Assembly: GCF_964355755.1 (NCBI RefSeq)
Contig: NC_092672.1
Coordinates: 32,680,437 to 32,744,436, forward strand
DNA length: 64,000 nt
From: Antedon mediterranea
Lineage: Eukaryota > Animalia > Echinodermata
Direction: 5' to 3'
Below the pieces are notes generated by a model. It ran no database searches and was not told the origin of the DNA. It saw only the letters and a program-made list of their open reading frames with translations. Positions 10,431 through 64,000 of this stretch are shown here, piece after piece. Every line of letters starts with the position of its first letter. Position 1 is the stretch's first letter. The translations under genes were made by a program, and so were the position numbers.

Positions 10431-10454
10431 TTATGGATCCTGGTCGAGCACTGC

Positions 10455-18942: not shown

Positions 18943-19079
18943 CTGATGTGCCGCTCTCTGGTGAAAATGTTAATATAATTATTCTGTTCAAGCTCTAGAA
19001 ATAACAGTCAAATACCGTTTGATATATCCCGTATAGATCAGGTGATCTGAGTTTAAACATATTCAGCCTATCGCGAGAA

Positions 19080-19370: not shown

Positions 19371-19563
19371 AGTCACATGATATATATGGAGAATGATTCA
19401 TAGTGACCGTAACTACAACAACACTCTTGAGCTATATAGATTTCTACGATTTGCTGCCAGATGAAGCATAACGTATTCAATGACTATGTTTATTATCATA
19501 ATGTAGATAAATTAAATATACAGAGTGTGTGTGCGTCACATTCACATAGTTATGGAACGCCGT

Positions 19564-33005: not shown

Positions 33006-35370
33006 ATGGCTGCATCAGGTACGATAGTTCTCCAATTTAAGATCTCAAATTTCACAAATCCTGAATTTCAGCATACATCCATTCAAAGAAATAACATATT
33101 AGTGAACTTATTAAAATATTTCAACAAATATTTATTTTGCCATTGTAAAATGTTCTTTTCTATTTAGTACTTCTATTTTAAAATTATTTATAAAAATATA
33201 TTATTTGTCTTAATTATATCAAACCGTTTATAACATTTAATCTGTTTTCGCTATATAGAAAGACTTGACTCATCTTTTAAACAAGGTTTAATAACTTTTT
33301 CAACTTGGTATGACGAACGTTCGTACATAACAAAACTAAAAGTGTTGTACCAAGGTAAAATTGCAGAAACGGATTTATACAATGCCTCAACGACGATGGA
33401 CTTGCTGAATCATTTATCTGATTCTGGGGATCACAGTTCAACAGATTACACTATTCTTTGTGATACAATAAAGGCCACTAAACAGTTTGGTATTATTGAA
33501 GAACTTCGAGTTCACATTCCATCTTTCCCGAATGTAAGAGAAGAAATCATTATTTCCAAGTTCAGTCATCATCAACAAAACATTATGAATTTAGGAAATG
33601 AACTAATACAGGAAGAAGTGAAAAAAATTGACATTATGTTCAATAAACCTCCAAAGAATCATAAAGATGGATGGAATCTCCTTTTGGATTTACAGCACAA
33701 ACAAATTATTTGTGAAGAAGAGAAAAAAATGGATACATTTATTAAGACCTTAGATAATCTTGGATTACCTCGCGCTGTAGCAACTCTTACTCAAGGTACA
33801 ATGTGATGAGTTTATTGGAACATGCTTACATTAAGCTCTGTCTACACTATCAAACTTATATCAAAAAAATGTGATGTGCCCATACAGTATAAATATGATG
33901 ATGTCATATCACTACCATATTTAAGCATATCACTACCATATTTTGGCATATCACTACCATATTTTGGCATATCACTACCATATTTAGGCATATCACTACC
34001 ATATTTAGGCATATCACTACCATATTTAGGCATATCACTACCATATTTAGGCATATCACTGCCATATTTAGGCATATCACTACCATATTTTGGCATATCA
34101 CTACCATATTTAGGCATATCACTACCATATTTAGGCATATCACTACCATATTTAGGCATATCACTACCATATTTAGGCATATCACTACCATATTTAGGCA
34201 TATCACTACCATATTTAGGCATATCACTACCATATTTAGGCATATCACTACCATATTTAGGCATATCACTACCATATTTAGGCATATCACTACCATATTT
34301 AGGCATATCACTACCATAGTTAAGCATATCCCTACCATATTTAGGCATATCACTACCATATTTAGGCATATCACTACCATATTTAGGCATATCACTACCA
34401 TATTTAGGCGTATCACACTTTTTTTGTCAAACTAGTTTGATAGTGTAAACAGAGCTTAAGAGAAAGTTATTTGAAAGCAATTTTTTTGCTTTCTACATAG
34501 TTTTAAAAATATTACTTAAATAATTTAAAACTTTCTATATATAATTTCAAACAATTGTAAATCATGTATGAAATTGGTTCTTATTAATCAGAAATCATCA
34601 AAATATTTTAAATATCATTACAGATGTTCCAATATCCGTTACTATGAAACGTAAGTCTGACCATGAAGACAATCAAGCTCTAAAGAGAACCTGTCTTCCC
34701 GCTGTATCTACACAAAGAAATCTTAATGGAAAACTAGAATGTTTTCAAAGCATTATTGATGAAATTCTGCGATCTTTACATACTCTATCTAAAATTAGGC
34801 CATCATCACTAAAAGATATTGATGACAATCTACATCTTTACCACCTAATCTTTCTGATAATACACCATCTGTACTCGCAACTATCCTTCAAAATCTGAAG
34901 TCTTTACAAAAAAACTATTAATGATAATCTACAAACATTACAATGTACTCTTAATATTGAAAATAGGCCTGTGGAAAGACGTATTTATAAAAAACTGCAA
35001 TCATTAAAAACCTTTCTTAAAAAAAGGAAACAATGTTTGTCAAATTTCACACCAACATTTTGTAAATACATAGGGGAACTAAACACTATGACACAAGATG
35101 ATGAGCAGAGATTATTTAGGACAGTACAACTCCTGATTTCTTTCTGCCAAAGATATGGATGTGAATTAAGCAAGCTGGAACGCAAATGTATAGTTTTTAC
35201 TTTTTCTGTACTGGACCCCATTGCTCTGGCTAATCTGTGGAATATGTGTCAAACGGGAGAGCTTCTTATAAAAGTGTCAAAGGAGCATCAGAAGACATTT
35301 CAAGTGGAATGGACAACAGAAATTGACAAAAACAAATATAAGGAAGCACTTTGTATGCTTGAACGAGAAG
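33006..35370 (+). pseudogene. 5' exons of the DED/TRADD-N-like gene (copy 1): 33006-33018, 33259-33795 (intact), 34624-~35370 (frameshifted, donor lost)
   Basis: Homologous to 58705-60458; -1 and +1 indels at ~34834 and ~34910 with a stop at 34898; donor G/GTGAG changed to G/GAAGA. Confidence 0.75.
33834..34456. mobile_element. MITE of the same family with an internally expanded 21-bp minisatellite (~24 units)
   Basis: TIRs agctctgtctacactatcaaact / agtttgatagtgtaaacagagct; unit catatcactaccatatttagg; empty site at ~59531. Confidence 0.9.
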
Positions 35371-35702
35371 GAAGAGAAAACTGTTCAATGCTTCAATCGA
35401 ATGAACAATTTTTTACAGGCATGTTATAATAAGGATTATTTTTAACCAAGTGATTTTTCAATGAACACATGTGTAGGCTATAAAGGTTCAGTCGAATATC
35501 GCATTAACCTAACAGCAATAACATTTACAAATAGTATAGATTCCAAATATATTAGAAAATCATCTTGATGTTGAGTGGTACACAGACTTAACAAGAATTA
35601 TGCTTTATACACATTTTTTTGGGATATTGCAATTTGAGCAATTATAAAATAAATTGGTCCGAGTATATTATGATTTTATTTTTTCTTTGTTACTCTATAG
35701 CA

Positions 35703-38700
35703 ATGACAGACAACAGAAAAAGACAACGTTATCGTGGTGGCCGTGGGCGGAGTGGTCAAACAAATAAACAAAATTGTTTAACAAGCAAATCGCATGTGAT
35801 AGAGAAAGCTTTGAAGACAGTCTGTGAAAATGGTGGTAGTATTTCTTTTGAAGATCTTGAAGTAAAAGTTGGAAAGATTTCACCTGATCTAGAAAGTTTT
35901 GAATACATGATATCACATCTTGATCATGAGTATTACCATTTTACCTTGATAGACCATGAAGATGGTAATACTGATGTTCAAGTGTTTACTCAAGTTAAGA
36001 TCTGCCCGTCCTACCAAAAAAAATGGTGAATGCAGGAAAAGTGATACTTGCACAGATTTACACCTGTGTGGTTACTTTGCTACAGGTACGGTTTATAATT
36101 GGCAGTCTATTGTTTTGTTATTATTTTTTTTAATTTGTTATTTAAAAATAAGTATGATAACAGTTTTAAAAAATGTGTTAACAAAGCAAAAATGTGGACA
36201 TTCAACGAAACTTCCCCAGTAATTGTGTATTCAAAACTATTAACTAATTAAAGGCCTATTAATATGATCTGTAATCAAAACTTTGAAGTTTGAGACTTTA
36301 AAAAATGCAAAACAACATGTCTAAACTGAACATTTCTGGTATTCTGTGGCAATGGGCCAGAACCACGTTCTTGGTAAGGAAAGAGCAACTAAATAAGTTA
36401 TTTTATTAAAGGTTCTTTCTGCTGGTTTGGAAGAACTTGTAGCAAAACTCATCATTACCGATCAGATCACAACAAGCAGGTGTTAAGAAACTTTAAAATT
36501 GCCTTCTTGCCCCAAGAACAGGCAAGTGTGCTATTTCGATGGGCCTGGCCACATTTTACTGTTCCAGATTTCTGTGGAAAATACCGCAGTAATACAGGTT
36601 GTGGCAAGCATAATTGCAGATTTCTACATCTTTGCAAGTAAGAATAACTGATTTTTATAAATTCTTTAAAAGCTGAAATAAAGAAACTTTAAACCATCCA
36701 GCGATTGCTTGGATTGTGCTTCTTGTCTGTCTGTGGGGCCAACTACATAGTGTTAGAACCTTAACACTAGGTTCTTTTACCGAAACAGATATTGACCAAT
36801 TTACAACAATTAAGTTGTACAGCAACTTTTCTCATGCCCTCTTTGCATTTCAGAAATCATGTTATGGAAACTTGCAAATTTGGAGCACGATGTAAGTTTG
36901 ACCATGAAATTTACCATGATGGATCTAACACCCAATTATTGAAGCATTTTGGAATTAGACTGGGTAACAGTTCTGATGATATAATCCGCCTGATTAAAGA
37001 GCGCCATGAAGGATTCTATTGTCCTGATGTTGAGGTGCTTCAGGGTGAATATGCAAAAACTGAGAGCGAATATAGTTTTGGGGAACGCAGCGGTGAGGAA
37101 GAAAGCCAATACAGTCCAGAAGAGGGCAGCGATGACGATAGAGAAAGCATTGTATCTAGTTCTACTTATGAGTTATATCAGAGAGCAGGTAAGTTAAGTA
37201 TACTCTAAATTTACAAACAAAACAGCTAATTTGAGAGAAAAAAATGATTAATGAAGTGCAGATAATCAAATAATCATACAAAGATATCTCCCTTGTTAAT
37301 TACAAATGATTCCCAAAATTTCGAGAGATTTCTTGTCATTTCCCACCAAATTCTCCTGATTGTTTTAGTACAAAAAGAACATCCTGAAATTCATAAATTT
37401 ATCATTTAGGCTCTACAAATAAAAAAAATGCGTTGCCATCACAATGTACGTCATCATATGTCATGCTTGGAGTGCCTGGCTTACTGTAGATGCTGATGCT
37501 AGAAATTTAAAATAGCACCATCTATTGGTAGTTGTATTTTTCTTTAAAATATTGCGTCCTCTATGGTAATATAAAAATCCTGTTTTTTGAATAGATAAAT
37601 CATTAAATTTTAATTTTATTTCTAATTAGCTTCCAACACTAGACAAAGGCACAGACATCGCCATCGCGGTCGTCGACGTGATTATAATCGAAGAAAAAAA
37701 GAAGAAAGTCTGACAAGTAAATCTTCTGTGGCTGAGAGATCACTGCAAGTAGTCTGTCAAAATGGTGGTAGTATTTCAGCGCAAGACCTTAAAGAGAAAG
37801 TTGGAAAGGTTTCACCCGATCTAGGAAGTTTGGAAAACATCATATCAGACCTCGATCATGAGAATTACCATTTTAAGTTCATAGACTATGAAGATGATAA
37901 TGTTGATGTTACAGTGTACACCCAAGTTAATATCTGTCAAACATATCAAAAGAATGAATGCACAGATGACTGCACAGATTTACACCTGTGTGGTTACTTT
38001 GCTACAGGTACGGTAGTCTGCTTTAAGTTGCTGTTGTTGCTAACGTTTTCCGTCTTCCGACATTACGCTTTCCACAATTTGTTTCCATTTTTTTCTGTTT
38101 ATGGCAGGATGGTTTGTTATTGTGTTAGTGTCTACTAGTCCTTGTAAGTCTTTCTTTATTTGATTCATCCAGTTATTTCTTGGTCTTCCTATGGGTAGTT
38201 TTACTTTCGATCCTGTTAGTTTCCTTCATTGTTTGTTTGATTGGTAGTCTGCTTTAACCCACCTATTAAATGCAGTATCAGAAGTACCCTCTATGTAGAG
38301 GGGTAAAACCCCATCTATAGCTTCAATAGAATTTTTCTGGAGAAAGACTCCAAAACCCTTGTTCTTCTCATCTGCAATCTGAAGTTTGTGTATCTTTGGA
38401 AACTTTACACAGAAAGTATTACTGAAATATTTTAATCCTTTGCTATTTCAATATAATACAGTAATACTCAAGGAGAGACCACTCAATTTTCAGAGCAATT
38501 TTTTTCCCAGTATCATATGAATATTCGGTAATACAGTATCTCATATGTATCATATGCCTGTATCATGTAAGGTTAGGTTAATGGTTAGGTTATATGGTCT
38601 ATAATATAAGGCAATACATGTGAAACATGATAATTATGAATGATAATTAATAATTATTTATTATTTAACTTTGTTGTAAATTGTTTGTTATTTTTGTAAA

Positions 38701-41700
38701 TGTATTGTTATTATAAGGTTCTTACTGCTGGTTTGGACGGCAAAGCTGTAGAAAAAGTCATGATTTTCGATCGGATTACAACAACCAGGTTTTAAAAAAC
38801 TTTGGCATTGCCTTTCTGAGACATAATCAGTTGAAAACTCTACTTCGATGGAAGTGTCCACAGTTTACAGTACCAGAATTATGTGGACAATACAGAAGAA
38901 ACATGGGCTGTGGCAAGGAACACTGTAGGTTTCTACATATATGCAGGTAAGAATATTTCACATGTATAATAGTTGCAACCTCTGTAAAGTAAAAATTATT
39001 TATTTTATGATAAAATTAGTAAAATAATAAAAAGTGGTTCAGGTTCCTGGGCCGGATTGCCTCCAGCATTATCACACACACACAAATGAGGTAAATGAGG
39101 TAATAAAGTAATTATAACAAAACAAATATTTCATTTGCATTGAACCTTCAAGCATCATGGTCAATCTTCAAGTGCTAGTTATGAGAATAAGAATCATAAA
39201 ACTGCATAATAAAAAATTCTGTTTCCAGAAGTGTTGTGATGGAAACTTGCAGCTATGGAAAAAGATGCAAGTTTGCCCATGACATCTATCAAATAGAGTC
39301 CAATGTGGAATTACTGAATAAGTTTCAAATTAGCTATAGCTCGGATGATACCATCCGCTTGATCAAAGAGCGCCATCAGGGAATCTATCGACCTGATGTT
39401 GAGGTCTTGCAGAGTGACGGAGAAGATAATCAATGTAGTCAGGAAGAGTGCATCGATGAAGAAAGTCCAGAAATCAGTCCACCTATCTCTCCTATATTAA
39501 TTACTCATAGGGATTTCGTTTCTCAAGAATACTCAAGAAGAGATACTTTTACTCATAAATCGGAACAAATGGTTAGACAAACAAGTTCAAAACATAATTT
39601 TGCTCCATTTAAATCAAACGTCCAAGATATGCCTAAGAGTTCTTCGGTAATGATTGCAGCTAAGCAATCAACACAATATGTTGCAAATAATGAGATACAA
39701 CAGAAGTCATACCAAGTTCAACCACTACCTAGTACCAAAGGAGAAAGGATTACACAACATGCACCATACCAGAAACAGGACAATTTCCAAGATATACCAA
39801 AGATGTCTTCGGTAATGACTGCAGTTAAACCATTGCAATATGACATTGAAACTAATCTGTTAGAAGAAAAGTCAGATATCCAGTCTGCATTCGTTTCTAC
39901 AAGTCAAGTTCAACCACTATCTAGTTGTAGAAGCAACGAAGAAAGGAACACATACACATACACATACAATCTAAGTCCAAAAAGTCCTTCATCAAACCTT
40001 AATTTCCAAGAAATTCCAACAAATTTGTCAGTTATGGCTGCAGCTAAACCATCAATATCACATATTGCAACTAATGTTTTAGAAATGAAGGTAGATTCTG
40101 CAAAGCAAGTTCAGTCACTACCTAGTAAAAAAAAAGAAATGGGTATTGCCAGATTCACAAAAAGTCCAATACAAGTGAAAATGAGAGAAATTTGCAAGGA
40201 CTACCTGAAAGGAAACTGCAGTAGTGGCAGTATGTGTCAGAGAATGCATTGTGATCTTCCTTATCAATGGCAAATGTCCATTAATGGTAGGTGGGTTGAT
40301 TTTGATGATAGATCAAATCTGAAAGTGGAAGAAGGATTTTGTGGAGAAATCACTGATTGTCCTCAGTTTCCTGTAAATACTACCATGTAAGTTTTGGACT
40401 CTTTATTGCTTAAGCCCTGTCTACATTTTATCAAACTACTGTAGTTGACAATAAAAGTGTGATGTACCCAACTATGGTTGTGATATGCCCAAATATTTTA
40501 GTGATATGACATCATCATGTCTCTGTGTAGACAGAGTTTTGGAAGTTTAAGTAAAGATTGTACTTTATGATAGTGTTGATGAAATTGAAGCACAAAATAA
40601 GCAGCTGGTATTGCAAAGAAAATTGTAGTTCAAGTTTTGTTTTTATATCTGCAAAATACATTCCATAACCAATTTATTGCTTGCTGACTACAATCACTAA
40701 GTTCATCCTGTTTATTCTACTTTAGTTATAAGAATTATATGCAGTTGTATTTTTTGTATTAAAAAATCTGAATTTTGAAATGAATTAATGGCTATTACTC
40801 TTCTTCTTTTTAAAAAAGGGATGTGTGTTTTGATAGCATGCTTGCATCTGATGGGTTAGACCTCTTTTCAGTTGAGCGACTGGAAGTCAAAGGTGATGAA
40901 GATGTTTCTGATGCCTATCTGGTATCTCCGTGGTCTTGGTATTGGCAGGATGAATGTGGAAAGTGGATTGAATACAGCGAACAGGTAGGCTTGTTTAAAT
41001 ATTTTATCTTCTCAACACTCCTCAACCAACAAAAAGAGAGCAGTAAGCAAGTAACTACAGTAAATAGTGCAGGGAAGAATAGTGCAGGAGCAGAGAAATA
41101 TTGCTATTCATGCTCCAGCATACAGTACAGTATTTTGTATTATTAGAACATGATTAAAACAAGATTAATTTCCATTTTTAATTAGAATACCAAGCAGAGT
41201 GCACGATCAGACAAAGAAAGTTCAGATTTTGAAAGTTTGTTTAAAGCTTATAAAAATGAAAATGGAAGTTCCAGCGTTAAATTCAAGGCTGGCAATCAAA
41301 ACTACACTTTGGACTTCTCTGCCATGAGCCAAACCAATGATAGATACCATACCAGAAGACCTGTTTGTCGAAGACCAGTCAGACAGATAAAACCAAAGGA
41401 TGTTGAGAAGTACAGAAAAGAAAAACCTTGGTAAAAAATAATAATTGTTAAATTATTCTTATTCGTATTTCTGAAGTCAGAATTAATTATTTCTCCTAGA
41501 TCATACGAAGGTATTTACTACCACATACTACTATGTTCCATTCTATAGCGGGTACTCTCCCTCATCACACACCACCCCAGTAGTTTAAAATATTCCCAGT
41601 ACAAATTCTGGTTATGTTAATCTAGTACTCTCAACCCCTAACCTTGTGTATGGAAGTTTGCAATAACAAACAAGTACTCAACCTGTAGCCCTAGTTTACT

Positions 41701-43126
41701 TTTACCAGGGAAGTTCATTTCACTCTTTCCTGCTGTTACCTTTTTTGTTATATTATATACTTAGGTTACACACTCATACTTTCCCAAGGACTTGGGATAC
41801 AACCATCAAAACAAAAACACATCGTCTTGTAAGAGTGACTAAGGAAGCAAATAACGAAGAATACAAAGAAATATCCAAACTATTTAAAAGAACTCTTCCA
41901 GATGGAGCAATAACTCGACTTGAACGAGTCCAGAATGAGATCTGCTGGGAAGCCTTTGCACGGTAAATTTTAAAATTATATGATAAATTGTTTACACTGT
42001 TTGACAGTAGTGATGTTATGGTATGAAAGATACATACTAATTTATAATAGCAATGCTATAGTTAATGCACTTACTACTTTTCTTAATTTTTATTAAAAAG
42101 TTTTGGGCCATATTATAAGAGCTTATGACATGAAGGTTATGGAATTTTTAAATAAAGCCTAAAGAAGGCCTTTAGCCTCGAACCAGACCATTGGTTCCCC
42201 ACTGCAGCCAAATGTTGATAGCTTCATTTGCCTGACTACTTTAAATATTGTGTCTATTGACCCTGAACTCTTTTTTCATTGATTTTTTAACAATTTATTT
42301 TTGTCTCACAAGGCAAAGGGAAACCATGATGAAGAAAAACTCTCGTAGAAAAATTGAAGAGCTCCAACTGTTTCATGGAACAATGCAGGATAAAGTTGAT
42401 GATATCTGTCGTGATAATTTTGACTTTCGCTTGAGTGGTACACGAGTTGGTCATGTTTATGGACAAGGAGCTTACTTCGCAAAGTCAGCAAAGTATTCCA
42501 ATGATTACGCTGAAAAAGACAGTGCTGGTAGGAAGAGGATGTTTGTTGCAAGAATTCTTGTTGGTAGCTACACAGTTGGCACAAAAGAGATGCGCCGGCC
42601 ACCGTTTAAAGACCCGGCAGATAAGTCAAAGGGGATGTATGACTCTTGTGTTGATGATGCAGCTAATCCAAGTATTTTTGTGGTGTTTGATAACCATCAG
42701 GTTTATCCAGAATATCTGATTACATATACCATTTCATCGCCTAATACAACATTATCTAGAGCATCAAACATTCAACCATCTATTGCGACCTCCTACCCAT
42801 CATCAAGAACTGCAGCAAGTGCCAGCCATTCAGGGTACAGTAACCCATATTCATCAAGCAGGTATAGCCCACCTACTGTCCGATCTTCAAGTTCAAACCA
42901 ACCATCTTACACTAACAACCCATACTCAGCAAGCAGGTATAGCCCACCTACTGTCCGATCTTCAAGTTCAAACCAACCATCTTACACTAACAACCCATAC
43001 TCAGCAAGCAGGTATAGCCCACCTACCATTCGATCTTCAAGTTCAAACCAACCATCTTACAGTAGTCCAAGTAGTTTGCCAAGGAGGGACAGCAAAGCAG
43101 ATAATAATAAATGTATTTGTATGTAA
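35703..43126 (+). pseudogene. PARP12/ZAP-like copy 2: +1 frameshift in exon 1, remaining nine exons apparently intact (36412-36637, 36854-37188, 37630-38007, 38718-38946, 39229-40386, 40819-40984, 41186-41430, 41765-41962, 42313-43126)
   Basis: A8 run at 36016-36023 replaces aaaagaa of copy 1, giving a stop at 36029; downstream splice sites and ORFs conserved; ends CICM. Confidence 0.7.
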
Positions 43127-46693: not shown

Positions 46694-49455
46694 ATGGCTG
46701 CATCAGGTACGATAGTTCTCCAATTTAAGATCTCAAATTTCACAAATCCTGAATTTCAGCATACATCCATTCAAAGAAATAACATATTAGTGAACTTATT
46801 AAAATATTTAAACAAATATTTATTTTGCCATTGTAAAATGTTCTTTTCTATTTAGTACTTCTATTTTAAAATTATTTATAAAAATATATTATTTGTCTTA
46901 ATTATATCAAACCGTTTATAACATTTAATCTGTTTTCGCTATATAGAAAGACTTGACTCATCTTTTAAACAAGGTTTAATAACTTTTTCAACTTGGTATG
47001 ACGAACGTTCGTACATAACAAAACTAAAAGTGTTGTACCAAGGTAAAATTGCAGAAACGGATTTATACAATGCCTCAACGACGATGGACTTGCTGAATCA
47101 TTTATCTGATTCTGGGGATCACAGTTCAACAGATTACACTATTCTTTGTGATACAATAAAGGCCACTAAACAGTTTGGTATTATTGAAGAACTTCGAGTT
47201 CACATTCCATCTTTCCCGAATGTAAGAGAAGAAATCATTATTTCCAAGTTCAGTCATTATCAACAAAACATTATGAATTTAGGAAATGAACTAATACAGG
47301 AAGAAGTGAAAAAAATTGACATTATGTTCAATAAACCTCCAAAGAATCATAAAGATGGATGGAATCTCCTTTTGGATTTACAGCACAAACAAATTATTTG
47401 TGAAGAAGAGAAAAAAATGGATACATTTATTAAGACCTTAGATAATCTTGGATTATCTCGCGCTGTAGCAGCTCTTACTCAAGGTACAATGTGATGAGTT
47501 TATTGGAACATGCTTACATTAAGCTCTGTCTACACTATCAAACTTATATCAAAAAATGTGATGTGCCCATACAGTATAAATATGATGACGTCATATCACT
47601 ACCATATTTAAGCATATCACTACCATATTTTGGCATATCACTACCATATTTTGGCATATCACTACCATATTTTGGCATATCACTACCATATTTTGGCATA
47701 TCACTACCATATTTTGGCATATCACTACCAAAATTTGGCATATCACTACCATATTTTGGCATATCACTACCATATTTTGGCATATCACTACCATATTTTG
47801 GCATATCACTACCATATTTAGGCATATCACTACCATATTTAGGCATATCACTACCATATTTTGGCATATCACTACCATATTTAGGCATATCACTACCATA
47901 TTTTGGCATATCACTACCATATTTTGGCATATCACTACCATATTTTGGCATATCACTACCATATTTAGGCATATCACTACCATATTTAGGCATATAACTA
48001 CCATATTTTGGCATATCACTACCATATTTAGGCATATCACTACCATATTTAGGCATATTACTACCATATTTAGGCATATCACTACCATATTTAGGCATAT
48101 CACTACCATATTTAGGCATATCACTGCCATATTTAGGCATATCACTACCATATTTTGGCATATCACTACCATATTTAGGCATATCACTACCATATTTAGG
48201 CATATCACTACCATATTTAGGCATATCACTACCATATTTAGGCATATCACTACCATATTTAGGCATATCACTACCATATTTAGGCATATCACTACCATAT
48301 TTAGGCATATCACTACCATATTTAGGCATATCACTACCATATTTAGGCATATCACTACCATATTTAGGCATATCACTACCATATTTAGGCATATCACTAC
48401 CATAGTTAAGCATATCCCTACCATATTTAGGCATATCACTACCATATTTAGGCATATCACTACCATATTTAGGCATATCACTACCATATTTAGGCATATC
48501 ACACTTTTTTTGTCAAACTAGTTTGATAGTGTAAACAGAGCTTAAGAGAAAGTTATTTGAAAGCAATTTTTTTGCTTTCTACATAGTTTTAAAAATATTA
48601 CTTAAATAATTTAAAACTTTCTATATATAATCAAACAATTGTAAATCATGTATGAAATTGGTTCTTATTAATCAGAAATCATCAAAATATTTTAAATATC
48701 ATTACAGATGTTCCAATATCCGTTACTATGAAACGTAAGTCTGACCATGAAGACAATCAAGCTCTAAAGAGAACCTGTCTTCCCGCTGTATCTACACAAA
48801 GAAATCTTAATGGAAAACTAGAATGTTTTCAAAGCATTATTGATGAAATTCTGCGATCTTTACATACTCTATCTAAAATTAGGCCATCATCACTAAAAGA
48901 TATTGATGACAATCTACAATCTTTACCACCTAATCTTTCTGATAATACACCATCTGTACTCGCAACTATCCTTCAAAATCTGAAGTCTTTACAAAAAAAC
49001 TATTAATGATAATCTACAAACATTACAATGTACTCTTAATATTGAAAATAGGCCTGTGGAAAGACGTATTTATAAAAAACTGCAATCATTAAAAACCTTT
49101 CTTAAAAAAAGGAAACAATGTTTGTCAAATTTCACACCAACATTTTGTAAATACATAGGGGAACTAAACACTATGACACAAGATGATGAGCAGAGATTAT
49201 TTAGGACAGTACAACTCCTGATTTCTTTCTGCCAAAGATATGGATGTGAATTAAGCAAGCTGGAACGCAAATGTATAGTTTTTACTTTTTCTGTACTGGA
49301 CCCCATTGCTCTGGTTAATCTGTGGAATATGTGTCAAACGGGAGAGCTTCTTATAAAAGTGTCAAAGGAGCATCAGAAGACATTTCAAGTGGAATGGACA
49401 ACAGAAATTGACAAAAACAAATATAAGGAAGCACTTTGTATGCTTGAACGAGAAG
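46694..49455 (+). pseudogene. 5' exons of the DED/TRADD-N-like gene (copy 2): 46694-46706, 46947-47483, 48708-~49455 (frameshifted, donor lost)
   Basis: Near-identical to 33006-35370; +1 in the A7 run at ~48993 gives a stop at 49006. Confidence 0.75.
47522..48542. mobile_element. MITE with 21-bp minisatellite expanded to ~43 units
   Basis: Same TIRs and insertion site as 33834-34456. Confidence 0.9.
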
Positions 49456-49787
49456 GAAGAGAAAACTGTTCAATGCTTCAATCGAATGAACAATTTTTTA
49501 CAGGCATGTTATAATAAGGATTATTTTGAACCAAGTGATTTTTCAATGAACACATGTGTAGGCTATAAAGGTTCAGTCGAATATCGCATTAACCTAACAG
49601 CAATAACATTTACAAATAGTATAGATTCCAAATATATTAGAAAATCATCTTGATGTTGAGTGGTACACAGACTTAACAAGAATTATGCTTTATACACATT
49701 TTTTTGGGATATTGCAATTTGAGCAATTATAAAATAAATTGGTCCGAGTATATTATGATTTTATTTTTTCTTTGTTACTCTATAGCA

Positions 49788-52700
49788 ATGACAGACAACA
49801 GAAAAAGACAACGTTATCGTGGTGGCCGTGGGCGGAGTGGTCAAACAAATAAACAAAATTGTTTAACAAGCAAATCGCATGTGATAGAGAAAGCTTTGAA
49901 GACAGTCTGTGAAAATGGTGGTAGTATTTCTTTTGAAGATCTTGAAGTAAAAGTTGGAAAGATTTCACCTGATCTAGAAAGTTTTGAATACATGATATCA
50001 CATCTTGATCATGAGTATTACCATTTTACCTTGATAGACCATGAAGATGGTAGTACTGATGTTCAAGTGTTTACTCAAGTTAAGATCTGCCCATCCTACC
50101 AAAAAAAATGGTGAATGCAGGAAAAGTGATACTTGCACAGATTTACACCTGTGTGGTTACTTTGCTACAGGTACGGTTTATAATTGGCAGTCTATTGTTT
50201 TGTTATTATTTTTTTTAATTTGTTATTTAAAAATAAGTATGATAACAGTTTTTAAAAATGTGTTAACAAAGCAAAAATGTGGACATTCAAAGAAACTTCC
50301 CCAGTAATTGTGTATTCAAAACTATTAACTAATTAAAGGCCTATTAATATGATCTGTAATCAAAACTTTGAAGTTTGAGACTTTAAAAAATGCAAAACAA
50401 CATGTCTAAACTGAACATTTCTGGTATTCTGTGGCAATGGGCCAGAACCACGTTCTTGGTAAGGAAAGAGCAACTAAATAAGTTATTTTATTAAAGGTTC
50501 TTTCTGCTGGTTTGGAAGAACTTGTAGCAAAACTCATCATTACCGATCAGATCACAACAAGCAGGTGTTAAGAAACTTTAAAATTGCCTTCTTGCCCCAA
50601 GAACAGGCAAGTGTGCTATTTCGATGGGCCTGGCCACATTTTACTGTTCCAGATTTCTGTGGAAAATACCGCAGTAATACAGGTTGTGGCAAGCATAATT
50701 GCAGATTTCTACATCTTTGCAAGTAAGAATAACTGATTTTTATAAATTCTTTAAAAGCTGAAATAAAGAAACTTTAAACCACCCAGCGATTGCTTGGATT
50801 GTGCTTCTTGTCTGTCTGTGGGGCCAGCTACATAGTGTTAGAACCTTAACACTACGTTCTTTTACCGAAACAGATATTGACCAATTTACAACAATTAAGT
50901 TGTACAGCAACTTTTCTCATGCCCTCTTTGCATTTCAGAAATCATGTTATGGAAACTTGCAAATTTGGAGCACGATGTAAGTTTGACCATGAAATTTACC
51001 ATGATGGATCTAACACCCAATTATTGAAGCATTTTGGAATTAGACTGGGTAACAGTTCTGATGATATAATCCGCCTGATTAAAGAGCGCCATGAAGGATT
51101 CTATTGTCCTGATGTTAAGGTGCTTCAGGGTGAATATGCAAAAACTGAGAGCGAATATAGTTTTGGGGAACGCAGCGGTGAGGAAGAAAGCCAATACAGT
51201 CCAGAAGAGGGCAGCGATGACGATAGAGAAAGCATTGTATCTAGTTCTACTTATGAGTTATATCAGAGAGCAGGTAAGTTAAGTATACTCTAAATTTACA
51301 AACAAAACAGCTAATTTGAGAGAAAAAAATGATTAATGAAGTGCAGATAATCAAATAATCATACAAAGATATCTCCCTTGTTAATTACAAATGATTCCCA
51401 AAATTTCGAGAGATTTCTTGTCATTTCCCACCAAATTCTCCTGATTGTTTTAGTACAAAAAGAACATCCTGAAATTCATAAATTTATCATTTAGGCTCTA
51501 CAAATAAAAAAAATGCGTTGCCATCACAATGTACGTCATCATATGTCATGCTTGGAGTGCCTGGCTTACTGTAGATGCTGATGCTAGAAATTTAAAATAG
51601 CACCATCTATTGGTAGTTGTATTTTTCTTTAAAATATTGCGTCCTCTATGGTAATATAAAAATCCTGTTTTTTGAATAGATAAATCATTAAATTTTAATT
51701 TTATTTCTAATTAGCTTCCAACACTAGACAAAGGCACAGACATCGCCATCGCGGTCGTCGACGTGATTATAATCGAAGAAAAAAAGAAGAAAGTCTGACA
51801 AGTAAATCTTCTGTGGCTGAGAGATCACTGCAAGTAGTCTGTCAAAATGGTGGTAGTATTTCAGCGCAAGACCTTAAAGAGAAAGTTGGAAAGGTTTCAC
51901 CCGATCTAGGAAGTTTGGAAAACATCATATCAGACCTCGATCATGAGAATTACCATTTTAAGTTCATAGACTATGAAGATGATAATGTTGATGTTACAGT
52001 GTACACCCAAGTTAATATCTGTCAAACATATCAAAAGAATGAATGCACAGATGACTGCACAGATTTACACCTGTGTGGTTACTTTGCTACAGGTACGGTA
52101 GTCTGCTTTAAGTTGCTGTTGTTGCTAACGTTTTCCGTCTTCCGACATTACGCTTTCCACAATTTGTTTCCATTTTTTTCTGTTTATGGCAGGATGGTTT
52201 GTTATTGTGTTAGTGTCTACTAGTCCTTGTAAGTCTTTCTTTATTTGATTCATCCAGTTATTTCTTGGTCTTCCTATGGGTCGTTTTACTTTCGATCCTG
52301 TTAGTTTCCTTCATTGTTTGTTTGATTGGTAGTCTGCTTTAACCCACCTATTAAATGCAGTATCAGAAGTACCCTCTATGTAGAGGGGTAAAACCCCATC
52401 TATAGCTTCAATAGAATTTTTCTGGAGAAAGACTCCAAAACCCTTGTTCTTCTCATCTGCAATCTGAAGTTTGTGTATCTTTGGAAACTTTACACAGAAA
52501 GTATTACTGAAATATTTTAATCCTTTGCTATTTCAATATAATACAGTAATACTCAAGGAGAGACCACTCAATTTTCAGAGCAATTTTTTTCCCAGTATCA
52601 TATGAATATTCGGTAATACAGTGTCTCATATGTATCATATGCCTGTATCATGTAAGGTTAGGTTAATGGTTAGGTTATATGGTCTATAATATAAGGCAAT

Positions 52701-55700
52701 ACATGTGAAACATGATAATTATGAATGATAATTAATAATTATTTATTATTTAACTTTGTTGTAAATTGTTTGTTATTTTTGTAAATGTATTGTTATTATA
52801 AGGTTCTTACTGCTGGTTTGGACGGCAAAGCTGTAGAAAAAGTCATGATTTTCGATCGGATTACAACAACCAGGTTTTAAAAAACTTTGGCATTGCCTTT
52901 CTGAGACATAATCAGTTGAAAACTCTACTTCGATGGAAGTGTCCACAGTTTACAGTACCAGAATTATGTGGACAATACAGAAGAAACATGGGCTGTGGCA
53001 AGGAACACTGTAGGTTTCTACATATATGCAGGTAAGAATATTTCACATGTATAATAGTTGCAACCTCTGTAAAGTAAAAATTATTTATTTTATGATAAAA
53101 TTAGTAAAATAATAAAAAGTGGTTCAGGTTCCTGGGCCGGATTGCCTCCAGTTGCCTCTAAATTTGGTAAAGATCCGTCTTTTAGTTTTTGACATTATCA
53201 CACACACACAAATGAGGTAAATGAGGTAATAAAGTAATTATAACAAAACAAATATTTCATTTGCATTGAACTTTCAAGCATCATGGTCAATCTTCAAGTG
53301 CTAGTTATGAGAATAAGAATCATAAAACTGCATAATAACAAATTCTGTTTCCAGAAGTGTTGTGATGGAAACTTGCAGCTATGGAAAAAGATGCAAGTTT
53401 GCCCATGACATCTATCAAATAGAGTCTAATGTGGAATTACTGAATAAGTTTCAAATTAGCTATAGCTCGGATGATACCATCCGCTTGATCAAAGAGAGCG
53501 CCATCAGGGAATCTATCGACCTGATGTTGAGGTCTTGCAGAGTGACGGAGAAGATAATCAATGTAGTCAGGAAGAGTGCATCGATGAAGAAAGTCCAGAA
53601 ATCAGTCCACCTATCTCTCCTATATTAATTACTCATAGGGATTTCGTTTCTCAAGAATACTCAAGAAGAGATACTTTTATTCATAAATCGGAACAAATGG
53701 TTAGACAAACAAGTTCAAAACATAATTTTGCTCCATTTAAATCAAACGTCCAAGATATGCCTAAGAGTTCTTCGGTAATGATTGCAGCTAAGCAATCAAC
53801 ACAATATGTTGCAAATAATGAGATACAACAGAAGTCATACCAAGTTCAACCACTACCTAGTACCAAAGGAGAAAGAATTACACAACATGCACCATACCAA
53901 AAACAGGACAATTTCCAAGATATACCAAAGATGTCTTCGGTAATGACTGCAGTTAAACCATTGCAATATGACATTGAAACTAATCTGTTAGAAGAAAATT
54001 CAGATATCCAGTCTGCATTCGTTTCTACAAGTCAAGTTCAACCACTATCTAGTAGTAGAAGCAACGAAGAAAGAAACACATACACATACACATACAATCT
54101 AAGTCCAAAAAGTCCTTCATCAAACCTTAATTTCCAAGAAATGCCAACAAATTTGTCAGTTATGGCTGCAGCTAAACCATCAATATCACATATTGCAACT
54201 AATGTTTTAGAAATGAAGGTAGATTCTGCAAAGCAAGTTCAGTCACTACCTAGTAAAAAAAAAAAGAAATGGGTATTGCCAGATTCACAAAAAGTCCAAT
54301 ACAAGTGAAAATGAGAGAAATTTGCAAGGACTACCTGAAAGGAAACTGCAGTAGTGGCAGTATGTGTCATAAAATGCATTGTGATCTTCCTTATCAATGG
54401 CAAATGTCCATTAATGATAGGTGGGTTGACTTTGATGATAGATCAAATCTGAAAGTGGAAGAAGGATTTTGTGGAGAAATCACTGATTGTCCTCAGTTTC
54501 CTGTCAATACCACCACTACCAAGTTTTGGACTCTTTATTGCTTAAGCCTTACACTTTATCAAACTAGTTGACAAAAAAAGTGTGATGTACCCAAATATGG
54601 TAGTGATATGCCCAAACATTTTTTTGTCACATAAAGTTTGATAGTGTAGACAGAGTTTTGGAAGTTTAAATTATGAGATTGTACAATCGAAGCAGCTGGT
54701 ATTGCAAAGAAAAGTGTAGTTCAAGTTTTGTTTTTATATCTGCAAAATACATTCCATAACAAATTTATTGCTTGCTGACTACAATCACTAAGTTCATCCT
54801 GTTTGATCTACTTTAGTTATAAGAATTATATGCAGTTGTATTTTTTGTATTTGAATCTGAATTTTGAAATGAATTAATGGCTCTTACTCTTCTTTTTAAA
54901 CAAGGGATGTGTGTTTTGATAGCATGCTTGCATCTGATGGGTTGGACCTTATTTTAGTTGAGCGACTGGAAGTCAAAGGTGATGAAGATGTTTCAGATGC
55001 CTATCTGGTATCTCCGTGGTCTTGGTATTGGCAGGATGAATGTGGAAAGTGGATTGAATATAGTGAACAGGTAGGCTTGTTTAAATATTCCATCTTCTCA
55101 ACACTCCTCAACCAACAAAAAGAGAGCAATAGGCAAGTAGCTACAGTGTAGTACAGGGAAGAATAGAGCAGGAGCAGAGAAGGATTGCTATTCATGCTCC
55201 AGCATGCAGTACAGTATTTTATATATTAGAACATGATTAAAACAAGATTAATTTCCATTTTTAATTAGAATACCAAGCAGAGTGCACGATCAGACAAAGA
55301 AAGTTCAGATTTTGAAAGTTTGTTTAAAGCATATAAAAATGAAAATGGAAGTTTCAGCGTTAAATTCAAGGCTGGTAATCAAAACTACACTTTGGACTTC
55401 TCTGCCATGAGCCAAACCAATGATAGATACCATACCAGAAAACCCGTCTGTCGAAGGCCAGTCAGACAGATAAAACCAAAGGATGTTGAGAAGTACAGAA
55501 AAGAAAAACCTTGGTAAAAAGACTAAAATGAATTATTTTTATTCATATTTCTGAAGTCAGAATTCATTATTTCTCCTAGATCATATATTTACTACCACAT
55601 ACTGCTATTTTCCACTCCATAGCGAGTACTCTCCCTCATCACACCCCACTGCAGTAGTTTAAAATCTTCCCAGTACAAATTCTGGTTATTTTGATCCAGT

Positions 55701-56791
55701 ACTCCCACCCAACCCATAAACTTGTTATTGTACACAATAACAAACATTTACTTTCCAAGTACTCAACCTGTAGCCAAGTAGTTTACTCTTGCCAGGAAAG
55801 TTCATTTCACTCTTTCCTGCTGTTACCTTTTTTGTTATATTATATACTTAGGTTACACACTCATACTTTCCCAAGGACTTGGGATACAACCATCAAAACA
55901 AAAACACATCGACTTGTAAAAGTGACTAAGGAAGCAAATAACGAAGAATACAGAGAAATCTCCAAATTATTTAAAAGAACTCTTCCAGATGGAGCAATAA
56001 CTCGACTTGAACGAGTCCAGAATGAGATCTGCTGGGAAGCATTTGCACGGTAAATATTGAAATTGTATATTATATATATTATATGACTACTTTAAATATT
56101 GTGTCTATTGACCCTAAACTCTTTTTCATCAATTTATTTTTGTCTCACAAGGCAAAGAGAAACCATGATGAAGAAAAACTCTCGTAGAAAAGTTGAAGAG
56201 CTCCAACTGTTTCATGGAACAATGCAGGATAAAGTTGATGATATCTGTCGTGATAATTTTGACTTTCGCTTGAGCGGGACACGAGTTGGGCATGTTTATG
56301 GACAAGGAGCTTACTTCGCAAAGTCAGCAAAGTATTCCAATGATTACGCTGAAAAAGACAGTGTTGGTAGGAAGAGGATGTTTGTTGCAAGAATTCTTGT
56401 TGGTAGCTACACAGTTGGCACAAAAGAGATGCACCGGCCACCGTTTAAAGACCCGGCAGATAAGTCAAAGGGGATGTATGACTCTTGTGTTGATGATGTC
56501 GCTAATCCAAGTATTTTTGTGGTGTTTGATAACCATCAGGTTTATCCAGAATATCTGATTACATAAACCATTTCATCGCATAGTACAACATTATCTAGGG
56601 CATCAAACATTCAACCATCTGGTAGTGCGACCTCCTACCAGTCAGCAAGAACTGTAGCAATGAATTCAGCAAACTGGTATAACCCACCTACCAGTCGTTC
56701 TTCAAGTTCAAACCAACCATCTTACAATAGTCCAAGTAGTTCGCCAAGGAGGGACAGCAAAGCAGATAATAATAAATGCATTTGCATGTAA
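49788..56791 (+). pseudogene. PARP12/ZAP-like copy 3, multiply inactivated
   Basis: Same exon-1 A8 frameshift (50101-50108); +2 at ~53495; +1 at ~54260; exon-6 donor lost (~54520); TAT>TAA at 56564-56566; vestigial CICM* at 56777-56791. Confidence 0.85.
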
Positions 56792-58704: not shown

Positions 58705-61700
58705 ATGGCTGCATCAGGTACGATAGTTCTCCAATTTAAGATCTCAAATTTCACAAATCTTGAATTTCAGCATACATCCATTCAAAGAAATAACATATTA
58801 GTGAACTTATTAAAATATTTAAACAAATATTTATTTTGCCATTGTAAAATGTTCTTTTCTATTTAGTACTTCTATTTTAAAATCATTTATAAAAATATAT
58901 TATTTGTCTTAATTATCAAACCGTTTATAACATTTAATCTGTTTTCGCTATATAGAAGGACTTAACCCATCTTTTAAACGAGTTTTAATAACCTTTTCAA
59001 CTTGGTATGACGAACGTTCGCTTATAACGAAACTAAAAGTATTGTATCAAGGTAAAATTGCAGAAACGGACTTACACAATGCCTCAACGACGATGGACTT
59101 GCTGAATCAGTTAACTGATTCTGGAGATCTCAGTTCAACAGATTACACTATTCTTTGTGACACAATAAAGGCCACTAAACAGTTTGGTATTATTCAAAAA
59201 CTTCGAGTTCACATTCCATCTTTTCCTAATGTAAGAGAAGAAATCATTATTTCCAAGTTCAGTCATCATCAACAAAACATTATGAATTTAGGAAATGAAC
59301 TAATACAGGAAGAAGTGACAAAAATTGACAATATGTTCAATAATCCTCCAAAGAATCACCAAGATGGATGGAATCTCCTTTTGGATTTACAGCATAAACA
59401 AATTATTTGTGAAGAAGAAGAGGAAAAAATGGATGGATTTATTAAGACCTTAGGTGATCTTGGATTATCTCGCGCTGTAGCAGCTCTTACTAAAGGTACA
59501 ATGTGATGAATTTATTGGAACATGCTTACATTATAGACAGTTATTTGAATGCAATATTTTTGCTGTTTACATAGTTTTTAAAATATTACTTAAATAATTT
59601 AAAACCGTCTATATATAATTTCAAACAATTGTAAATCATGTATGAAAATGGTTCTTATTAATCATCAAAATATTTTAAATATCATTACAGGTGTTCAAAT
59701 ATCCGTTACTATGAAACGTAAGTCTGACCATGAAGATCATCAAGCTCCAAAAAGAACCCGTGTTCCCGCTGTATCTACACAAAGAAATCTTAATGGAAAA
59801 CTGGAATGTTTTCAAAGCATTATTGATGAAATTCTGCGATCTTTACAATATACTCTATCTGAAATTAGGCCATCGTTACTAAACGATATTTATGAAAATC
59901 TACAATCCTTACCACCTAGTCTTTCTGATAATACACCATCTGTACTTGGAACTATCGTTCAAAATCTGAAGTCTTTACAAAACACTATTAATGAAAATCT
60001 ACAATCATTACAAAGGACTCCTAATATTGAAAACAGGCCCGTGGAAAGACGTATTTATAAAAAACTGCAATCATTACGAAATTTTCTTAAAAAAAGGAAA
60101 CAATGTTTGTCAAATTTCACACCAACATTTTGTAAATACATAGGGGAACTAAACACTATGACTCAAGATGATGAACAGATATTATTTAGGATAGTTCAAC
60201 TCCTGATTTCTTTCTGCCAAGGATATGGATGTGAATTAAGCAAGCTGGAACGCAAATGTATAGTTTTTACTTTTTCTGTACTGGACCCCATTGCTCTGGC
60301 TAATCTATGGAATATGTATCAAACGGGAGAGCTTCTTACAAAGCTATCAGAGATACTTATAGCGTCAAAGGAGCATCAGGAGACATTTCAAGTGGAATGG
60401 ACAACAGAAATTGACAAAAACAAATACAAACAAGCACTTTGTATGCTTGAAGAAGAAGGTGAGACAAATTTGCAATGCTTCAATCGAATGAACAAATATA
60501 TTTTACAGGCATGTTATAATAAAGAATTTTACGAGTTATTTTTCAACACATGTGTAGGCTATAAAGGTTCAGTCGAATATCGCATTAGCCTAACAGCAAT
60601 AACATTTACAAATAGTATAGATTCCAAATATATTAGAAAATCATCTTGATGTTGCGTTGTGCACATATTCAACCTCTTGTCATAAGTTGTTTACCACAAA
60701 TTTATGATACACATCAACGCATGTAGACAAAATAATATACATACAAAACAACCTATAGTAACGCATGTGTTTGTCTACTTGGCATGTGCTGGTAATGCTA
60801 TTTTGTTTGAAACCAAGTAAGATAAAACATTAGAAATTGATAAATTACAATACAGTCTGAGTTTTAGTATTTTATAACAATGGTATTTTATATTTTCTTT
60901 GTTTCTACAGTCCAAGATATGCCTTATTCACTAATGACTGCAGCTAAACCATCAACACAATATGCTGCAAGTAGTCGGATACAACGGAAATCATACCAAG
61001 TTCAACCACTACCTAGTACCAAAGAAGAAAGGATTACACAACCTGCACCATACCAGAAACAAGAGAATGTCCAATATATACTAATGAAGTCTTCAGTAAT
61101 GACTGCAGCTAAACAATCAACACGATATGGTGCAAGTAATCGGACACAACGATACATCTCCCTCGACGAGGGGGGTGAATTCCCCGACGAGGTGGAAGTC
61201 ATCCCCTTCGACGAGGGGGGTGAATTCCCCGACGAGGAGAAGATTGAAGAAATAGATTCAAAGGAAGTTCAGTCACAACCTAGTAACGAAAAAGAACAAC
61301 CTGGGTAAAAAACTAATTGTCTTAATTATTTTTTTATATTGTATTCATAATAATTAACGTGTGTAGATCATACGCAGTTATTATTTATAACAACCCACCC
61401 ATGACGGGTACCTTAACTCAAAGCACTCTAGTAGTTTAAAACCTTCCCAGTACAAATTGTGGTTATGTTATCCAATATTCTCAACCCATAACCATCCGTA
61501 TGGATGCGTGCAATAACAATGAATTTACTTCAACCTGTCGCTCAGTATTTTACTCTTGCCATGGAAGCTCATATCAGGGAGAAGCGTGTAATTTTACTCT
61601 TTCCTGCTGTTACCTTACAGTGTTATGTTATATACTTTATAGGTTACACACTTATACTCTCCCAAGGACTTGGGATACAACCATCAAAACAACGAAAACA

Positions 61701-63396
61701 CATGAACTTGTAAGAGTGACTGATAGAAAAGAATACAAAGAAATATCTGCACTATTTAAAAGAACTCTTCCAGATGGAGCAATAATTCGAATTGAACGAG
61801 TTGAAAATGAGAAATGCCGGAAAGCATTTGCATGGTAAATATTTATAATAATTATTATATGAACAGTTTAATATACTGGTGTATATTTGATGTCGACACT
61901 GATTCCTCCTTCATTTACTTTACATTTTTTAAATATTTTCTCAGGTCATCTCTTCGACTCATTTTAACTTTTCTGAGGCATGCACTAATGCAGCTAATTT
62001 GTTTCAGTTGAGTTTCGGGTCGAAATGTGATGTTTTCCTTAGTTTTTCGAATAAATTCATGATTTTTTTTTATCTCACAAGGCAAAAATGCACGATGATA
62101 GGAAACTCTAACAAAGAGATTGAAGAGCTCCAACTGTTTCATGGAACAATGCAGGATAGAGTTGAAGATATCTGTCGTGATAATTTGGATTTTCGCTTGA
62201 GCGGTTCACGAGTTGGTAATATTTATGGACAAGGAGCTTACTTCGCAAAGTCAGCAAAGTATTCCAATGATTATGCTGGAACAGACAGTGTTGGTAGGAA
62301 GAGGATGTTTGTTGCAAGAGTTCTTGTTGGTAGCTACACAGTTGGCACAAAAGAGATGCCCCGGCCACCGTTTAAAGACCCGGCAGATAAGTCAAAGGGG
62401 ATGTATGACTCTTGTGTTGATGATGTAGCTAATCCAAGTATTTTTGTAGTGTTTAATAACAACCAGTTTTATCCAGAATATCTGATTACATATACCATTT
62501 CATCGCATAATAAAACATTATCTAGAGCATCAACCATTTCATCTAGATCACAGCGGCGGCGGCAGGATCCTCCCGACGCGGAGGCTGAATTCCCCAACGA
62601 GGGGGCTGAATTCTCCGACAAGGGGGCTGAATTCTCCGACGTGGAGGCTGAATTCCCCGACAAGGGGACTATGCGAGCATCACTAGATTGGGGGCCAGAG
62701 AGGCTGCAGTGGCGCCAGAATCTTCCCGACGAGGGGGATGAATTCCCCGACGAGGGGGATGAATTCCCCGACGAGGGGGCTATGCGAGCATCACTAGATT
62801 GGGGGAAAGGGAGGCAGCGGTGGCGCCAAGATCTTTCCGACGAGGTGTCTGAATACTCCGACAAGGGAGCTGAATTCCCCGACGAGGGGGCTATGCGAGC
62901 ATCACTAGATTGGGGGTCAGGGAGCCAGCGGTGGCGCCAAGATCTTTCCGACGAGGTGTCTGAATACTCCGACGAGGGAGCTGAATTCCCCGACGAGGGG
63001 GCTATGCGAGAATCACTAGATTGGGAGAAAAGGAGGCAGCGGTGGCACCTTCCCGACGAGGGGGCTGAATTCTCTGACGAGGAAGCTGAATTCCCCGACG
63101 AGGGGGCTATGCGAACATCACTAGATTTGGGGCCACAGAAACAGCGATTGCGCCAGGCTCTTCCAGACGCGGGGGCTGAATTCCCCGACGAGGGGGCTAT
63201 GCGAGCATCACTAGATTGGGGGCCAGAGAGACAGAGATTGCGCCGGGCTATTCCCGACGCGGGTGCTGAATTCCCCGACGTGGAGGCTATGCGAGCATCA
63301 CTAGATTGGGGTCAGGGAAGCGGTCAAGGGCCAGAAGGCGAAGGACCCCGGGTCCAGAAGAAGGCGAAGCCCCCGGAAGCATGCATTCTAGCGTAA
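58705..63396 (+). CDS. Predicted ~1073-aa protein: tandem DED-like domains, TRADD-N-like domain, PARP (H-Y-I), acidic repeats, CaaX (CILA). Exons 58705-58717, 58956-59495, 59691-60458, 60911-61304, 61643-61834, 62082-63396
   Basis: All five introns GT-AG and phase-compatible; total 3222 nt with no stops; death-fold-like helices (LKVLYQGKI...DLLNQLTDSGDLS; GWNLLLDLQHKQII); CIVFTF...LANLWNMYQTGELL; LFHGT, GAYFA, PSIFVVF. Confidence 0.78.
62570..63315 (+). repeat. GC-rich coding repeat: 21-bp unit gaattccccgacgagggggct (EFPDEGA) nested in higher-order units containing MRASLDWG
   Basis: Visible periodicity; same unit also at ~61160-61240. Confidence 0.92.
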
Positions 63397-64000
63397 TTTG
63401 ATGCCGTTTTATCCAGATTTAGGGTAGCCGACTGTTTCCATTTTTCATGGTATAAATAAAATACTGTGTGCAAAACACATTGCACTAGGTCCGATGCGAT
63501 GGTGCAAAAATCCATTCTTTCAATTTTAAAAATGAAGTGACCTTTAAAGTTCAATGTTCCTATTTTCAATTTTATCGGGTAAATTGTAGCATAGAATTGC
63601 GCTACAGTATATAAATCGAACGATTGATTGATTGATATAATTATATATAAACCTTATTTAGACACAGGACTGATGTGCAGTACAACTCGTTCAATCAATA
63701 TTGATTGTTTTTAGACAAGTTCGTGATATTACAAAAAAACCAACACCATATAAATGCGACAAAAAAGATAGAAAAAATTGAAATTGAAAAGACAAAAAAT
63801 TACAGCAGACTCCCCTTCATCTGACACCTCTATGAGGGGTACACCATATATACTTCCTGTGTTGATAGAAACTATACGCGAACGTAAACGTACCCACGGG
63901 CCAAGAGGTATATTGTTAATCGCAGAGGTATAGGCTAATTGCTGTCTGGAGATGCGGAACTGTAAAATGCGCAAAACAACACCCCTGGGCTGATTTGTAG

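Follow-up and report, generated by a model that had tools for sequence, protein, structure and literature searches.

A probable PARP fusion gene at the end of a tandem array

The window analysed here is a 64,000-nt stretch of the genome of the feather star Antedon mediterranea (contig NC_092672.1, positions 32,680,437 to 32,744,436), and it holds a tandem array in the order ZAP-A, DED1+ZAP-B, DED2+ZAP-C and, last, a fusion gene in which a cassette of tandem death effector domains (tDED) and a TRADD-N-like region precedes a PARP domain (Table 1). The original prediction, made from the letters alone, had joined six exons of this gene in frame and placed a CaaX box at its end. Both proposals were upheld: all introns are GT..AG, the single frame of 3222 nt (1073 aa) has the terminal stop as its only one, and the predicted CaaX residues, CILA, directly precede that stop. 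The exon-2 acceptor at 58956 is conserved in both paralogous copies of the cassette, whereas the alternative at 58959 is not.

The units of this recent tandem array are 97-98% identical, a setting in which an assembly might fuse two collapsed repeats. However, a 396-nt contig spans 60625-61020 with 0 differences in three DNA runs from one sample, which may be the source of the window, and the same runs give coverage in 30 of 30 bins of the examined region. Because of this bridging contig the genomic join of exon 3 to exon 4 is probably real and not an assembly error; moreover, intron 3 and the PARP half, which has diverged, each occur only once in the window, and an artefact of this kind is highly improbable.

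Table 1. Coordinates of the fusion gene and of the other array members (positions within the window)
Feature	Position	Strand	Description
Exon 1	58705..58717	+	Start codon, four codons and one base, phase-1 donor; micro-exon also in both paralogous copies
Exon 2	58956..59495	+	tDED, phase 1-1
Exon 3	59691..60458	+	Basic stretch, helical linker, TRADD-N-like domain (about 60130-60457), phase 1-1
Intron 3 (fusion intron)	60459..60910	+	Shared with the broken DED copies up to 60673; 3' end ZAP-acceptor-like
Exon 4	60911..61304	+	Composite: two ZAP linker pieces, 21-nt-repeat insertion (61156-61240), last codons and donor of the second WWE exon of ZAP
Exon 5	61643..61834	+	PARP domain, first part; 88% identity to the ZAP-A exon, indels +3 and -9
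Exon 6, 5' part	62082..62540	+	PARP catalytic core; H 62140, Y 62239, I 62440
Exon 6, acidic tail	62541..63381	+	21-, 90- and 111-nt repeats (TRF)
CaaX box (CILA) and stop codon	63382..63396	+	Called from sequence; AATAAA downstream at 63455
ZAP-A	21470..29794	+	Intact ZAP/PARP12-like gene encoding P0049 (1379 aa); model for the donor of exons 4-6
Hybrid unit 1	33006..43126	+	Broken cassette copy DED1, then ZAP-B with a frameshift in its first coding exon
Hybrid unit 2	46694..56791	+	Broken cassette copy DED2, then ZAP-C with three frameshifts and an early stop past the PARP core

The tDED and TRADD-N-like cassette

The first death effector domain (DED) of exon 2 is matched by Pfam DED at E 9e-6, its 26.3 bits lying below the curated cutoff of 35.9, and the second gives no match in the Pfam scan and an Atlas DED score of 0.90. 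An AlphaFold2 model built on a 54-sequence alignment reaches a pLDDT of 96.5 (folding from the single sequence gave only 49 and was useless) and superposes on the caspase-8 tDED with Z 17.1 and a root-mean-square deviation of 2.5 over 165 residues, the next-best structures being cFLIP and vFLIP (Z 13-14). Foldseek on the same model returns TM scores of 0.66-0.74 for the top three structures, yet with weak E values of 2e-3 to 6e-3. As modelled, exon 2 is two six-helix death-fold bundles packed like the caspase-8 tDED, and its initial assignment as DED-DED is thereby supported, although by Pfam it stays below the cutoff. Profile-profile comparison of the two exon-2 halves found no significant similarity between them (probability 0.5%). 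The 'LKFL' segment of FADD aligns with 'LKVL' in the crinoid tDED family; the numerous crinoid proteins with paralogous cassettes are therefore likelier partners of the tDED than the FADD/caspase-8 or TRAF partners that the original prediction implied.

For exon 3, the last 142 residues match Atlas TRADD-like_N clusters at 0.94 and 0.93, with 216 of 256 features shared and a recognition value of 2450, the family being present on 54% and 45% of the top-cluster members. The Pfam scan of this exon gives nothing even at E<=10, and the TRADD-N-like call of the original prediction is probable by the Atlas match. Exon 3 is also 54% identical over 263 columns to P0068, a protein with the same cassette before a different C-terminal region.

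A search of 1.84 billion representatives gave 147 relatives of exon 2 at E<=0.001, and all ten whose taxonomy was looked up are crinoid (seven Antedon, three Anneissia). Pfam scans covered all 147, 80 of them at E<=1e-6 and 67 at E<=1e-9, and many exceed the Pfam DED cutoff on summed score. The domains that accompany the cassette are NACHT (23 relatives), Roc/COR (13), TIR (3), caspase (2) and ZU5 (2), with one relative each for Rel, RIG-I helicase, UCH, ubiquitin, fibrinogen, ENTH, kinase and HEPN. Single proteins include P0104, with the cassette on a RIG-I-like helicase where CARDs would sit, P0064 (Antedon), with the cassette on a Rel homology domain, and P0135, where it stands behind TAZ-KIX and COR domains. 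A PARP domain was found in none of the 147, either by Pfam or by a local profile for which three positive controls scored 1e-37 or better. The TRADD-N-like region is present in 14 of the 147; when 11 relatives are aligned at its shared end (P0130 was left out for a misplaced alignment), seven run on for a further 111-804 residues. As judged from its many paralogues, the cassette is a module with a variable C-terminus, which fits the expansion of DED and TRADD-N proteins with variable effectors in invertebrates.

The PARP half as a gutted ZAP/PARP12-like copy

Exons 4-6 align with the ZAP-like genes of the window at 81-83% identity over 60910-61141, 74% over 61290-61852 and 91-92% over 62062-62538, and both PARP introns are located at ZAP intron positions. 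The frame of exon 4 agrees with that of ZAP at all three joins. When the 50 nt before the exon-4 acceptor are compared with 6803 AG sites, the top 12 correspond to the three ZAP first-coding-exon acceptors (scores 40-45, the next 38); a longer alignment of intron 3 with the ZAP-A intron is merely suggestive, since 17 of 3272 control windows score as high. The six small indels that separate exons 4-6 from ZAP are all multiples of three (-6, -6, -3, +3, -9, -3), and with the three joins this makes nine rearrangements in these exons that all preserve the frame, compared with 2 of 14 indels that are multiples of three in intron 4. By this alignment the 3' half derives from the adjacent ZAP/PARP12-like gene as a DNA copy that has suffered internal deletions but kept its introns, and because they are kept its origin would be DNA duplication and deletion, not retrotransposition.

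The exon-6 PARP domain is recognised by Pfam at E 7e-20, and its closest solved relative is human PARP12 (E 1e-33), with the same H, Y and I at the three columns that we take to be the catalytic triad of a mono-ADP-ribosyltransferase (positions 62140, 62239 and 62440). The CCCH zinc fingers and WWE domains of the ZAP neighbours have no Pfam match in exons 2-6 and are deleted relative to ZAP. Alignment, splice sites and frame thus agree with the derivation of the last three exons from the ZAP-like gene (a linker fragment and shared intron positions) that had first been proposed, and the claims of an H-Y-I PARP and of lost fingers and WWE domains proved correct as well. Among other crinoid PARP12-like proteins, P0010 (Anneissia japonica) is a fusion with DUSP and ubiquitin-like domains replacing the N-terminal fingers, and P0006, P0008 and P0009 have long hydrophobic tails.

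The tail of exon 6 comprises 285 residues, 70 of them acidic, and its repeat motif recurs in the exon-4 insert. Summed contig depth over the tail rises up to about 250-fold over the single-copy parts, a ratio that is not a copy number, and the tail is probably an exonised genomic repeat. A Pfam MuDR match on it had no passing stretch and was dismissed as an artefact of the repeats. A further interspersed repeat, just past the poly(A) signal (63508-63552), is marked by very high summed contig depth with many loose ends.

History of the array

The window encodes, besides P0049, the protein P0001, with three exons at 100% and a fourth block that spans an intron; both are labelled Antedon mediterranea in NCBI. 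DED1 and DED2 share sequence with the fusion gene as far as 60673; both are without the exon-3 donor and 18 nt of TRADD-N, and their open frames stop at 274 and 282 codons. Their non-coding flanks diverge by 1-8% from the fusion gene. Intron 4 of the fusion gene is only 80% identical to that of ZAP-A, as against 99% between ZAP-A and ZAP-B and 90% between ZAP-A and ZAP-C, which suggests that the fusion gene predates the hybrid units. Frameshifts are present in each of the younger copies (DED1, DED2, ZAP-B and ZAP-C). Unequal crossing-over between intron 3 of the fusion gene and the ZAP-A intron would give two broken DED-ZAP units in exactly the observed order. An ancestral gene joining DED to a full ZAP at the site of ZAP-A was considered and is unsupported, as a search upstream of ZAP-A found neither a DED cassette nor a coding micro-exon.

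An in-frame splice is possible from exon 2 of DED1 to the first coding exon of ZAP-B (33795/35701), and likewise from DED2 to ZAP-C (47483/49786), but a frameshift ends the product at codon 292; the hybrid units may once have been fusions of a tDED with a full ZAP. Intron 2 of both copies holds a 21-nt minisatellite (33902-34416; 47592-48502) that is absent from the fusion gene. In ZAP-A the N-terminal winged-helix and zinc-finger module is present twice (21470-26100), and a long fold-back with 10-nt AT-rich repeats lies upstream of it (19560-20400). Elsewhere in the window there are three related single-ORF (open reading frame) methyltransferase-like genes with weak Pfam matches (133-1881, 12884-14848 and 17728-18969; minus strand), two of which end in the CaaX-like TCPCILL while the middle one carries three fused RRM domains (E 2e-57), and a 1.7-kb inverted duplication of 97% identity (8279-9966 / 10452-12135) whose broken ORFs resemble a transposon gene.

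Selection, expression and competing readings

The fusion is probably a real gene with a traceable origin. The reading to which we lean, with confidence slightly above even, is that the six-exon gene is likely made as one protein in which the tDED and TRADD-N-like cassette would deliver a PARP12-type mono-ADP-ribosyltransferase to death-fold complexes. It has to be weighed against three others, and the first of these turns on the exon-3 donor. If this donor is read through, the frame continues for 63 codons to a stop at 60649, so that the locus could be split between a short tDED-TRADD-N protein and an orphan PARP remnant. Such a division is decidedly unlikely. It would accord with DED1 and DED2, which have no donor, with the failure of the protein searches to return an annotated fusion, and with four relatives that end right past the same site. 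However, the donor is a good match (AAG|GTGAGA), inspection of the sequence between the stop at 60649 and exon 4 found neither AATAAA nor ATTAAA, and the PARP half has no first exon of its own, yet has kept its frame through nine rearrangements. Taken together, the aligned relatives suggest that the phase-1 donor is conserved, serving in some cases for splicing to a variable module and being read through in others.

A second reading concerns what an expressed fusion would do. Ratios of nonsynonymous to synonymous substitution (dN/dS) are 0.37-0.39 for the TRADD-N half of exon 3 (p 0.017), the sole part with a supported value below 1, and 0.50-0.52 for exon 2 (p 0.06-0.09), and selection is thus clearer on the cassette than on the PARP half. 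The protein might accordingly be mainly a membrane-anchored, cFLIP-like tDED decoy or scaffold that caps DED filaments, its PARP domain a decaying passenger. The match of the exon-2 fold to cFLIP and vFLIP would agree with this, and there is a precedent in human ZAP-L, described as having an inactive PARP domain that serves localisation together with a CaaX box, whose farnesylation brings ZAP-L to membranes (PMC8568172). We regard a decoy as unlikely: the H-Y-I residues and the motifs flanking them are intact, the dN/dS evidence is weak since substitutions are few, and adaptive change once the fusion had formed could likewise give values near 1.

Values near 1 in exons 4-5 would equally suit a chimeric pseudogene, either unexpressed or silenced not long ago, in an array with fast turnover, open by chance and by selection of the finding; repeat-derived insertions in two exons and the breakage of four of the six array units point the same way. 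This is quite unlikely, as the open copy is the oldest one by intron identity, the closer ZAP-B and ZAP-C being broken, and the sole indel variant within exons 4-6 in the examined read runs is of 6 nt. A frame that receives 40-60 random substitutions would stay open in 5-13% of cases, and the actual frame contains no stop.

Several observations nevertheless weigh against a single active fusion protein. The exon 3-4 splice junction (60458/60911) is predicted from genomic DNA, and no spliced read was seen across it; run X1, which is RNA by guess only, covers 12 of 30 bins but not the PARP exons, and is no evidence either way. No annotated database protein was found for the fusion gene, though ZAP-A and part of ZAP-C are annotated, in word-based searches that are insensitive, because they missed even the known relatives P0055 and P0068; those with the TRADD-N region, at 292-2000 aa or 88-280 aa, returned nothing. 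Four of the 11 aligned relatives stop 4-11 residues past the TRADD-N end with glycine as the first residue, as read-through of the donor would give. For the PARP core, dN/dS against ZAP-A, ZAP-B and ZAP-C is 0.75, 0.81 and 0.48 (p 0.16-0.78, not significant), and exons 4 and 5 give 0.66-1.04, in contrast to 0.13-0.19 for ZAP-A or ZAP-B against ZAP-C. Three PARP changes in well-filled columns (F to L, R to P and V to F) are unseen in 48 relatives, as is a K to R change at a variable column (0 of 48). Nine frame-keeping events at one in three each would have a chance of about 5e-5, a figure that is inflated because the finding was chosen for being in frame, and the exon-4 alignment contains a -2/+2 indel pair at a poorly aligned spot. 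Lastly, the 3' ends of the fusion gene and of the ZAP genes do not align, so the CaaX box is not clearly inherited from ZAP and may have arisen from the repeat.

Proposed origin and role

In the favoured reading of one active fusion protein, a DNA duplicate of the ZAP/PARP12-like gene would have come to sit behind the tDED/TRADD-N cassette and shed its zinc fingers and WWE domains through internal deletions while its outer splice sites were retained, so that homotypic DED recruitment would take over from RNA and ADP-ribose sensing. The protein, probably located at membranes via its CaaX box, would be brought by the tDED to paralogous tDED sensors (NACHT-LRR, RIG-I-like or Roc/COR) or to tDED caspases, and could tune their assembly by mono-ADP-ribosylation (MARylation). 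Modification of DED assemblies by the fusion protein is suggested by analogy with human PARP12, which is described as MARylating RIPK1 and RIPK3 and limiting caspase-8 engagement (PMC12184365).

A wider proposal is tentative and, taken as a whole, rather doubtful: that feather stars have a large plug-and-play immune network, built on one tDED cassette, whose sensors are NLR-like, RIG-I-like and Roc proteins and whose outputs are of caspase, TIR, Rel and deubiquitinase type, and to which this gene would add a newly born, active, membrane-anchored output of PARP12 type. Hard-wired to DED filaments, the enzyme would then achieve through fusion what human PARP12 achieves by binding RIPK1. The shuffling at the DNA level that brought it into a phase-1 intron, all breakpoints being still legible, would illustrate how such architectures come about.

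Comparison with known systems

Expansions of DED and TRADD-N proteins in marine invertebrates, echinoderms included, have been described by Kaur et al. (2021; PMC8195603), who list DED+TRADD-N+RRM/KH+Macro+PARP proteins in Crassostrea and Amphimedon, HEPN+TRADD-N+...+Macro+PARP in corals and TRADD-N+PARP in Branchiostoma belcheri, with PARP14-like RRM/KH/Macro bodies in all except the amphioxus one. Because these sponge, oyster, coral and amphioxus fusions are listed there, the architecture class DED+TRADD-N+PARP is already published and not new. The 19 'PARP' places in the part of supplement file 4 that was covered include no PARP fusion from an echinoderm, and no crinoid or ZAP-derived DED/TRADD-N/PARP fusion came up in the literature searches, although further published cases may exist. 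What is new here is the PARP12/ZAP-branch donor, the tandem DED, the CaaX box and an origin at the DNA level whose traces are legible in the locus.

The fusion gene resembles the published expansions in its constant DED and TRADD-N part, variable C-terminal effector, PARP effector, sessile marine host and rapid turnover. It departs from the published fusions in having two DEDs, a PARP of the PARP12/ZAP branch without RRM, KH or Macro domains, and a repeat tail with a CaaX box. Retrotransposition has been proposed for part of the DED/TRADD-N diversity (PMC8195603), whereas the introns and splice sites kept in this gene fit segmental duplication and deletion, making it a worked example of how a variable architecture is born. 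If expressed, it represents an independent origin of DED/TRADD-N/PARP coupling from the PARP12/ZAP branch and argues that ADP-ribosylation of death-fold complexes has been repeatedly selected in marine invertebrates. Its apparent absence from the public protein set means that hidden fusions in tandem arrays may be undercounted.

With PARP12 and ZAP (ZC3HAV1, PARP13) the gene shares a catalytic domain nearest human PARP12 and the intron positions of the local ZAP-like gene, and it has a C-terminal CaaX box like ZAP-L (PMC8568172) and the crinoid PARP12-like proteins P0003, P0004 and P0049. Its triad is intact, unlike that of human ZAP-L, and, unlike in PARP12/ZAP, the CCCH fingers, winged-helix and WWE domains are all gone, so that no reading of RNA or ADP-ribose is predicted. 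Like caspase-8 and cFLIP it has an exon 2 that superposes on an entire tDED, but at 12-14% identity, with no caspase domain and with the FL motif of the first DED replaced. The order of DED, basic linker and TRADD-N is that of DEDD/DEDD2 (FLAME-3), from which the fusion gene differs in its two DEDs and its enzymatic C-terminal extension.

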